Assembly: GCA_038215155.1 (NCBI GenBank)
Contig: JBBQRF010000003.1
Coordinates: 65,904 to 129,903, forward strand
Direction: 5' to 3'
DNA: 64,000 nt
From: Minisyncoccia bacterium
GTDB taxonomy: Bacteria; Patescibacteriota; Minisyncoccia; Phycocordibacterales; CAJBRS01
The position numbers and the translations under genes were made by a program. Numbering within the stretch: position 1 is the stretch's first letter; every line of letters begins with the position of its first letter. The notes under the pieces are model-generated. The model was not told the DNA's origin, ran no database searches, and saw only the letters and a program-made list of their open reading frames with translations. Of this stretch, positions 48,667 through 49,326 are shown piece after piece.

Positions 48667-49215
48667 TCAATCCTTAACGAGGTTGATTAATGTTATAAAA
48701 TCTTCTGTCATACGCGAAATCCTTATAATATATTTGGGAGTTTTTGTAACTGATATCTTATAAATTTTTGGTACAAAATCTAGATTTTGTACCATGATCA
48801 TCACATCATTAGCAAGATCTTTTATAATTGTTGTAAAATTTACCATTTTATATCCACGGTCATAATATATAGAACCATCTGTTTGGAACAAGCCACGTAA
48901 ACACTCAACTGAGTAATTTCTATTTTCTTTGATCCAATCTGGAACTCTAACATTCTGCATAAACTTTGACCCGTTCTTCGCTTTCCACCCCAAGATGCTT
49001 TCTAGATGATTTGAATAGCAGTAAACATCAAGAGCCTTCGCTTTTCTTCTGGCCACAGATACTTTATTGTCCGGAAGTAATTTCTGAAGCGATTCTCTAA
49101 TCGTTTTAATTAAATTAGGATACCCTAAATCACAAGTAATTCTTAATCTTGTAGCCCTATTATTTGAATTTGATAAATTGCCATCACCAATGGAGAGCCC
49201 AATAACATAGGCCAT
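48667..49215 (-). CDS. LAGLIDADG family homing endonuclease (double-motif, single chain)
   Basis: start moved to MAYVIGLSIGDGNL (motif 1) because the longer ORF runs through tRNA-Leu on the same strand; second motif LRGLFQTDGSIY. Confidence 0.7.
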   Translation of the reverse strand: MAYVIGLSIGDGNLSNSNNRATRLRITCDLGYPNLIKTIRESLQKLLPDNKVSVARRKAKALDVYCYSNHLESILGWKAKNGSKFMQNVRVPDWIKENRNYSVECLRGLFQTDGSIYYDRGYKMVNFTTIIKDLANDVMIMVQNLDFVPKIYKISVTKTPKYIIRISRMTEDFITLINLVKD

Positions 49216-49244
49216 TAATTTTAAATCAGTACTTAACCTCTTAG

Positions 49245-49326
49245 TGCCAGAGGTGGGACTTGAACCCACAAGCCTTGCGGCACGCGATTTTGAGTCGCGC
49301 ATGTTTGCCAATTTCACCACTCTGGC
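49245..49326 (-). tRNA. tRNA-Leu (anticodon CAA)
   Basis: reverse complement GCCAGAGTGGTGAAATTGGCAAACATGCGCGACTCAAAATCGCGT..GTGGGTTCAAGTCCCACCTCTGGCA. Confidence 0.85.

Follow-up and report, generated by a model that had tools for sequence, protein, structure and literature searches.

A free-standing LAGLIDADG endonuclease gene behind tRNA-Leu(CAA) in a Minisyncoccia bacterium, and the family tied to that tRNA gene

In a Minisyncoccia bacterium, a gene for a LAGLIDADG endonuclease lies between the tRNA-Leu(CAA) gene and miaA, which raises the question of what such a gene is and what keeps it directly behind a tRNA. The gene was examined in a stretch of 64000 nucleotides, referred to here as the window (GenBank assembly GCA_038215155.1; contig JBBQRF010000003.1, positions 65904 to 129903), and compared with its relatives in other genomes. 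An initial annotation, made from the sequence of the window, had described it as a free-standing homing endonuclease or the remnant of an invasion without an intron or intein, and as a mobile selfish gene in an unusual place. The gene was found to belong to a large, compact family, almost entirely confined to the Candidate Phyla Radiation (CPR, or Patescibacteria), that is tied to one gene, tRNA-Leu(CAA). The parts of the locus are as follows, with coordinates in the window.

49244 to 49326, minus strand: tRNA-Leu(CAA), uninterrupted (ARAGORN; Rfam RF00005 at 49245-49326, 57 bits)
49216 to 49243, minus strand: spacer from the tRNA to the ATG, without a terminator (sequence reading, start-codon survey and terminator scan)
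48667 to 49215, minus strand: LAGLIDADG endonuclease open reading frame (ORF), 182 amino acids (aa), monomeric two-motif type (Pfam PF14528, 49.1 bits)
49171 to 49212, minus strand: LAGLIDADG motif 1 and first beta strand (AYVIGLSIGDGNLS; Asp11 codon at 49183-49185)
48865 to 48903, minus strand: LAGLIDADG motif 2 (CLRGLFQTDGSIY; Asp113 codon at 48877-48879)
47700 to 48662, minus strand: miaA, tRNA isopentenyltransferase (TIGR00174, 239 bits; Pfam IPPT)

The tRNA-Leu(CAA) gene is the head of a minus-strand unit in which the endonuclease ORF and then miaA follow downstream. The ORF runs from an ATG at 49215-49213 to a TGA at 48669-48667, and the 183 aa first given for it are 182 aa, or 183 codons including the stop. 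The ATG is 29 nt from the discriminator base of the tRNA (49245), where about 30 nt on the same strand had been reported, and the stop codon is separated from the miaA ATG (48662) by the expected 4 nt (48663-48666). The tRNA, said to be uninterrupted, was found to be so by both ARAGORN and Rfam.

The encoded protein carries both of the LAGLIDADG motifs that had been reported, AYVIGLSIGDGNL and CLRGLFQTDGSIY, each ending in an acidic residue (AYVIGLSIGD11G and CLRGLFQTD113G). In an alignment of 31 diverse homologues (A1), Asp11 and Asp113 are both invariant, as are the GDGNLS stretch at motif 1, the G, L, T, D, G and Y of motif 2 and the beta-hairpin residues next to the catalytic Asp; the DNA-contacting hairpins are nearly invariant across classes. 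The profile search proposed in the initial annotation gave a match to Pfam LAGLIDADG_3 (PF14528; E 7e-13), in which the score of 49.1 bits exceeds the cut-off of 22.5; the searches were run with residues 2-182. Matches to NCBIfam were weak and partial, and fell on the endonuclease part of intein-containing proteins. On the evidence of its sequence, the ORF is genuine: an intact gene for a LAGLIDADG endonuclease, with a product that is probably catalytically competent. A tblastn match to the endonuclease elsewhere in the window (30702-30890) was weak and was rejected as spurious, the ORF there encoding an unrelated 201-aa protein.

A sequence search of solved structures with the family profile gave nothing at E<=0.01, and matches came from fold comparison alone. 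The AlphaFold2 model built from the 31 homologues (predicted local distance difference test, pLDDT, 90; predicted template-modelling score, pTM, 0.86) has the order alpha-beta-beta-alpha-beta-beta-alpha twice, in a pseudo-symmetric arrangement. Its best Foldseek matches were I-DmoI, PI-PfuI and PI-SceI (TM-score ~0.70, 20-22% identity), with I-DmoI at the top (E 4e-9). The window protein shares with I-DmoI and with the endonuclease domains of PI-PfuI and PI-SceI a two-motif chain of ~180-190 aa, a pseudo-dimeric fold and an acidic residue at the end of each motif. It differs from I-DmoI, which is encoded in an archaeal 23S rRNA intron, in that its gene is free-standing beside a tRNA gene, and no match is found at the sequence level. 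The ORF is thus predicted from the model to encode a free-standing, monomeric, I-DmoI-like LAGLIDADG DNA endonuclease, in agreement with the free-standing enzyme first proposed. Some sources label members of the family as WhiA, a domesticated LAGLIDADG transcription factor, and a weak match to PF14527 (WhiA) was obtained. However, this match was under the cut-off (18.7 against 23.2 bits) and the protein has neither a C-terminal helix-turn-helix nor any additional domain. WhiA lacks the catalytic Asp residues, which are invariant in the tRNA-Leu family.

The extent of the family was examined in protein and genome collections. A protein search with the window endonuclease found 730 homologues, hundreds of which are 53-62% identical and 187-195 aa long, and every homologue with an organism named by its source was from Patescibacteria/CPR. 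The family forms a tight island, with full-length members scoring at least 228 bits and the next proteins ~122 bits; the exhaustive profile search covered 1.84 billion cluster representatives. Relatives were also found in 222 genomes in a scan of one genome per GTDB species, from which 80 loci were fetched, 73 of them with enough 5' flank to be informative. tRNA-Leu(CAA) is directly upstream on the same strand in 68 of these 73 loci, with 19-67 nt between its end and the first motif, and the first three independent loci inspected all showed this arrangement while their remaining neighbours varied. The tRNA-adjacent position had been called unusual; in a family present in at least 222 species-representative genomes it is the normal address.

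Among the five informative loci that depart from this arrangement, two have tRNA-Leu(CAA) adjacent in another orientation and one has the tRNA 2.9 kb away. The tRNA is next to the endonuclease gene on the opposite strand in L026, and in L064 the endonuclease gene is inverted, yet lies on the 3' side of the tRNA. In L051 (coordinates 1009-4567) the two genes have an ABC-transporter operon between them, and L022 (coordinates 2072-3739) has no tRNA and a tyrosine recombinase immediately upstream of the endonuclease gene. A promoter-like sequence (GCGATTTTGAAAAT..GGTAAAATAAA) is common to the copies in L022 and L051, and the GC-rich hairpin region ahead of it gave no match to a structured RNA in Rfam at E<=0.5.

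Links to phages or defence systems were not found where they were sought. IMG/VR viral contigs hold only distant LAGLIDADG proteins (the best 43% identical over a fragment), the PHROGs search gave no match to the family, and PADLOC matched its generic 'HEase' model only. As NCBI already labels members 'LAGLIDADG family homing endonuclease', the kind of protein is known, but the family is apparently undescribed in its tRNA-boundary habit. A full-text literature search, with subscription journals outside its coverage, found no description of tRNA-flanking LAGLIDADG genes in CPR bacteria; a survey of tRNA introns in Patescibacteria (PMC13011429) contains no tRNA-boundary rule for LAGLIDADG families, and a study of CPR rRNA insertions (PMC11270868) does not mention a tRNA-boundary family.

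Whether the gene is left over from an intron- or intein-borne endonuclease, or is a decaying, inactive pseudogene, was considered at this point, as the LAGLIDADG genes so far reported from CPR bacteria are located inside rRNA insertions (PMC11270868) and the window copy has no ancestral start codon. No group I intron was matched in Rfam in the region 47500-49900 even at E<=10, nor in the whole window at the gathering threshold, the matches around the ORF being the two tRNAs and noise; the group I core search suggested in the initial annotation was therefore negative over 2.4 kb around the gene. Neither Hint nor splicing domains were found in the 182-aa ORF, all of which is taken up by the endonuclease fold. 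The ORF is moreover intact, with every invariant residue present, and the family is under strong purifying selection (see below). The remnant reading is very improbable and is essentially refuted.

The longer ORF that reads through the tRNA does exist, but the importance attached to its open frame does not stand. It is the NCBI annotation of the gene (P0001; 232 aa, coordinates 48667-49365), with a TTG start upstream of tRNA-Leu(CAA). As the endonuclease is found in all three frames with respect to the tRNA at similar frequency (25/31/30 over 86 distinct loci), and tRNA-Leu(CAA) has no stop codons in two of its three frames, an open frame across this tRNA is meaningless. Other homologues have likewise been mis-called through the tRNA, and some are labelled 'WhiA' or even 'ribosomal protein L28'. 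ORFs called through a tRNA gene and 'WhiA' labels are flagged here as a recurrent annotation error.

The LAGLIDADG genes carried by rRNA insertions and group I introns in CPR bacteria (Tsurumaki et al. 2024, PMC11270868) resemble the tRNA-Leu family in phylum, in superfamily and in their presence/absence polymorphism at fixed sites in conserved RNA genes. They differ in lying inside rRNA and relying on removal of the insertion, whereas the tRNA-Leu family is located outside the mature RNA and forms a separate tight clade.

The presence or absence of the gene was then compared between related loci, many of which share a further neighbour with the window:

49403 to 50452, plus strand: parB, divergent from tRNA-Leu(CAA) across a 76-nt spacer (Pfam ParB_N, HTH_ParB and ParB_C)

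A metagenome scan with a 36-nt core of the window tRNA clade found 107 loci, of which 91 were informative. The endonuclease gene is directly downstream of tRNA-Leu(CAA) in 27 of these and 64 are empty, and carriers and non-carriers are interleaved at the same divergence. Divergent ParB is upstream of the tRNA at 23 occupied and 17 empty loci. At the tRNA-Leu(CAA)-miaA junction with divergent parB, the comparison of relatives that had been proposed gave 14 occupied and 8 empty unique loci, and at empty junctions the miaA ATG is 0-50 nt after the tRNA (L135, L140, L147, L162, L197 and L179). The gene in the window was thus aptly described as wedged into a tRNA-Leu(CAA)-miaA unit, as relatives hold the same junction empty; a LAGLIDADG profile match and empty-site alleles, the lack of either of which would have counted against the initial annotation, were both found. 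Occupied and empty loci could be paired by synteny (L028 with L173, L068 and L080 with L176, and L129 with L174), the flanks being 70-76% identical on both sides.

The gene is therefore dispensable. Damaged copies are rare, with one nonsense copy in 93 and one remnant in 91: a single in-frame stop was found in an otherwise conserved copy (L020, coordinates 4001-4546), and in L124 (coordinates 5925-6100) a deletion has left about the first 27 endonuclease codons, with a terminator hairpin behind them. Tyrosine integrases, which have their attachment sites at tRNA gene 3' ends, likewise exploit a conserved spot where insertion does no harm and the tRNA stays intact. However, they are a different enzyme with a different chemistry; here the insert is a single gene, and no duplicated tRNA 3' segment of the integrase type was found at the occupied and empty junctions.

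One copy was found outside the CPR. L057 is an 80.7-kb contig of 61% GC, on which Tgt is 82% identical to one from a named member of the Gammaproteobacteria and the neighbours include a P4-type integrase (on the 3' side of the tRNA), queA and tgt. The endonuclease in L057 is intact, has a GC content of 0.54 and is most closely related to a Yanofskybacteria copy (62%). In the region 3388-4555 of the contig, its gene is divergent from tRNA-Leu(CAA) and 180 nt from the 5' end of the tRNA. A 235-nt insert, probably a group I intron, interrupts this tRNA at position 34/35; its last base is G, its excision restores a perfect 87-nt tRNA, and it gave a weak group I intron match (17 bits against a threshold of 50, E 0.19). 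The closest endonuclease relative is found in the CPR locus L031, and L057 and L031 do not differ in a 24-nt stretch of the anticodon arm. The L057 copy indicates that the family has crossed phyla and is still found beside tRNA-Leu(CAA).

The layout in L057 resembles that known from collaborative homing. The enzyme could cut inside tRNA-Leu(CAA), for example in the anticodon loop, much as free-standing phage endonucleases cut a neighbouring gene, with carriers protected by an interrupted or altered site. The DNA-contacting hairpins, being nearly invariant across classes, suggest a conserved target and would suit such a scheme, as would an endonuclease gene 180 nt from an intron-split copy of its tRNA. 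However, the tRNA is uninterrupted in the window and in ~70 other carriers, the split layout being confined to L057, where the group I match is far under its threshold. In addition, the tRNAs of occupied and empty loci can be identical, and anticodon stems vary widely among carriers. Collaborative homing is therefore considered improbable as a general account of the family.

A second LAGLIDADG family of CPR bacteria was found to be linked to a different tRNA. Its members are 260-277 aa long and ~30% identical to the first family, with an N-terminal helix-turn-helix-like extension, and 590 homologues were identified. The gene is directly 5' of tRNA-Tyr(GTA) on the same strand at 6 of 6 independent loci, with its stop codon anywhere from 36 nt inside the 5' end of the tRNA to 3 nt before it, while its other neighbour varies between clpB and an EF-Ts region. 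Occupied clpB-LAGLIDADG-tRNA-Tyr loci include L178 (coordinates 4577-5439), L240, L243 and L244. The family was present at 1 of 8 unique tRNA-Tyr loci among those fetched for other reasons, and the window holds the empty form, with 19 nt between clpB and tRNA-Tyr(GTA):

44211 to 46895, plus strand: clpB (ORF call)
46896 to 46914, plus strand: 19-nt empty site of the tRNA-Tyr-linked LAGLIDADG family (ORF and tRNA calls)
46915 to 47001, plus strand: tRNA-Tyr(GTA) (tRNA call)

All of the LAGLIDADG ORFs in the 1.38 Mb of fetched DNA, a sample biased to such loci, belong to these two families, each beside its own tRNA. The L057 copy and the independent tRNA-Tyr(GTA) family together suggest that the tie to a tRNA may be a property of the enzyme and not of inheritance only.

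The age of the association was assessed from occupied loci. Across 496 pairs with alignable flanks, the nucleotide identity of the endonuclease gene follows that of the flanks, as in L104/L152 (81.5 against 86%), the window and L011 (69 against 73%) and L044/L072 (77.5 against 74%). Between the window and L001, protein identity is 69% for the endonuclease, 62% for MiaA, and 82% for both ParB and TopA. In syntenic pairs the ratio of non-synonymous to synonymous divergence (dN/dS) is 0.04-0.10, with dS >1. The GC content of the endonuclease gene is always ~8 points lower than that of its flanks and is correlated with it (r = 0.81). An AT-rich dip at the endonuclease in the window (GC 0.33 against 0.44) was considered as a sign of recent acquisition and rejected, as the lower GC is a family trait that tracks the flanks. 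Congruence of the endonuclease with the tRNA is seen only above ~65% identity; at greater depth endonuclease identities plateau at ~54%, with no relation to tRNA similarity.

As the gene co-diverges with its flanks, has a dN/dS of 0.04-0.10 and tracks the GC content of its host, it is by these measures an old, selected resident and not a recent invader. The description of it as a mobile selfish gene is not supported, given this co-divergence, the purifying selection and the lack of any visible recent transfer, although L057 shows that transfer took place in the past.

These properties also bear on the possibility that the protein has been domesticated, that is, that a single insertion in an early CPR ancestor, dependent on the tRNA promoter, gave rise to a nuclease or DNA-binding protein that is useful to the cell and no longer homes. 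Its role might then be to cut foreign DNA, to act at the tRNA locus or to serve in trans the many introns without ORFs in these genomes. Such a history would be in keeping with co-divergence from which no pair stands out by an endonuclease far more similar than its flanks, with low dN/dS where dS is >1, with an endonuclease conserved on a par with MiaA and ParB, with GC ameliorated to the host at every locus, with the scarcity of damaged copies, and with a downstream side on which no half-site is conserved. However, the gene is absent from ~70% of sister loci, which are interleaved with carriers, so it is not needed, and both catalytic Asp are invariant, unlike in WhiA or in LAGLIDADG proteins that act only as maturases. 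A single inherited insertion also leaves unexplained both the gammaproteobacterial copy beside tRNA-Leu(CAA) and the second family with its own private tRNA, and no defence or phage family was matched beyond the generic homing endonuclease model. Domestication is thus judged rather unlikely, though much less so than collaborative homing.

The start of the gene was examined next to the tRNA in 80 unique loci. The first possible in-frame start (ATG or TTG) falls 1-8 nt beyond the discriminator base in 46 of these loci and no more than 16 nt beyond it in 64, with junctions such as GGCA-C-ATG and GGCA-C-TTGAAAAAG, and neither a promoter nor a Shine-Dalgarno sequence could fit into a gap of 1-16 nt. 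In the window the start position departs from this pattern. In-frame translation of the spacer yields KRLSTDLKL, a counterpart by homology of the stretch KKRLSKNLKL at the N terminus of relatives with a tRNA-abutting start. This indicates that the ancestral start has been lost in the window, where the ORF opens one codon ahead of the first motif. In L011, its closest relative (69%), no canonical start codon at all is present in the interval from the tRNA to motif 1.

Empty alleles usually have a terminator hairpin after the tRNA (for example L173, L176 and L128). In occupied alleles the endonuclease ORF takes the place of the whole spacer and often abuts or overlaps the start of the next gene (L028, L044 and the window). 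No terminator was found by the window scan in noncoding sequence between tRNA-Leu(CAA) and the end of miaA. The first minus-strand terminator-like site outside coding sequence downstream of the tRNA is located beyond miaA, the only other one being weak and within the miaA coding region (48366-48345):

47623 to 47653, minus strand: strong terminator-like hairpin 3' of miaA, with a 14-pair stem followed by a T run

The endonuclease gene would accordingly have neither a promoter nor a ribosome-binding site of its own; a single tRNA-endonuclease-miaA transcript would start at the promoter of the tRNA, and processing at the tRNA 3' end would release an mRNA with hardly any leader. Such co-transcription is the simplest reading and, from the arrangement of the genes, most likely the correct one. 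By eye, a weak TATGGT is present six nt before tRNA-Leu(CAA). At empty loci, ordinary genes such as miaA and parB begin 0-20 nt from the tRNA 3' end (L135, L140, L162, L197, L118 and L145), which points to operons headed by a tRNA, with near-leaderless mRNAs, as a common arrangement in these genomes.

As to what holds the gene in its place, a free-standing LAGLIDADG endonuclease that is specific for the tRNA-Leu(CAA) gene and persists by homing is the favoured explanation, with a probability of roughly 55%. The enzyme would recognise DNA within the tRNA-Leu(CAA) gene or at its border, and the endonuclease gene would persist by converting alleles that lack it through double-strand-break repair, mostly within populations and only rarely across lineages. 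A place just outside the mature tRNA would offer a conserved sequence for recognition and for homology, and would be harmless without an intron or intein. Homing is favoured because the catalytic residues and DNA-contacting hairpins are invariant or nearly so, the gene is dispensable, a copy is found in another phylum beside the same tRNA, and a second family exists. Insertion behind tRNAs for the sake of their promoters was rejected as a sufficient cause, because each family uses one tRNA species only.

Several results weigh against homing. No recent horizontal homing is visible, as in none of the 496 pairs is the endonuclease much more similar than the flanks, and prolonged vertical inheritance with purifying selection is as well explained by a gene that is useful to the host. 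No discriminating motif that could mark a candidate cleavage site was obtained from the occupied and empty junctions, from the sequence after the stop codon or from per-position differences between the tRNAs; empty alleles share no conserved sequence beyond the tRNA, nor do occupied alleles beyond the stop codon. The tRNA genes of L080 (occupied) and L176 (empty) are identical, such that a target wholly inside the tRNA would exist in the carrier's own genome. The scan found no consensus promoter upstream of tRNA-Leu(CAA), and the tight junction between tRNA and ORF is partly a general trait of these compact genomes, since ordinary genes are placed in the same way. The identical tRNAs of occupied and empty loci agree with a target that straddles the tRNA boundary, whereas a target inside the tRNA fits L057 but leaves carriers without an intron unprotected.

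Free-standing endonucleases next to their presumed targets are known from phages. T4 SegB is a free-standing phage endonuclease in a tRNA gene cluster, and F-CphI is known for 'collaborative homing'. The tRNA-Leu family resembles SegB, F-CphI and mobE in being an endonuclease without an intron or intein beside a conserved gene presumed to contain or border the cut site. It differs from them in that they are GIY-YIG or HNH enzymes of phages that spread in co-infection, whereas the tRNA-Leu family is LAGLIDADG, cellular and mostly vertical. mobE is a free-standing phage homing endonuclease that acts on a neighbouring gene (PMC2790892).

Other features of the window and of its relative L001 complete the picture of the locus. 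In the region 47674-49326, miaA is situated between tRNA-Leu(CAA) and tRNA-Trp(CCA), both of which have anticodons ending in A36. tRNAs with an anticodon ending in A36 are the usual substrates of MiaA. The tRNA-Trp(CCA) gene is on the opposite strand and overlaps the 3' end of the miaA ORF by 47 nt, and in L001 tRNA-Trp shares a strand with miaA. In L001, moreover, the endonuclease gene is separated from miaA by an extra 157-aa ORF of the other strand (coordinates 5719-6192), which has no Pfam match and is absent from the window. The minus strand of the window further encodes a bacterial class A RNase P RNA (coordinates 5612-5959, 119 bits), an ordinary feature.

By the usual account, a homing endonuclease depends on a self-splicing intron or intein to occupy a conserved gene without harm, and survives by moving before it decays. 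The tRNA-Leu family does neither in an obvious way, as it is found beside one tRNA in hundreds of genomes, probably shares the transcription of that tRNA and is dispensable, yet intact under strong selection. If the family has instead been domesticated, its members would be unrecognised accessory genes of the poorly understood CPR bacteria. If the end of the tRNA is the recognition site, it would be a new niche for selfish nucleases, and the family would supply compact (~185 aa) LAGLIDADG scaffolds with defined natural targets. It is tentatively proposed, with somewhat less than even confidence, that a class of 'tRNA-boundary' LAGLIDADG endonucleases exists in CPR bacteria and now and then in other phyla, each family dedicated to one tRNA end (3' for tRNA-Leu(CAA), 5' for tRNA-Tyr(GTA)), inserted just beyond the mature RNA and using the tRNA as half-site and homology arm. 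Such a class would represent a third harmless way of life besides introns and inteins, stable through very long vertical inheritance under purifying selection.

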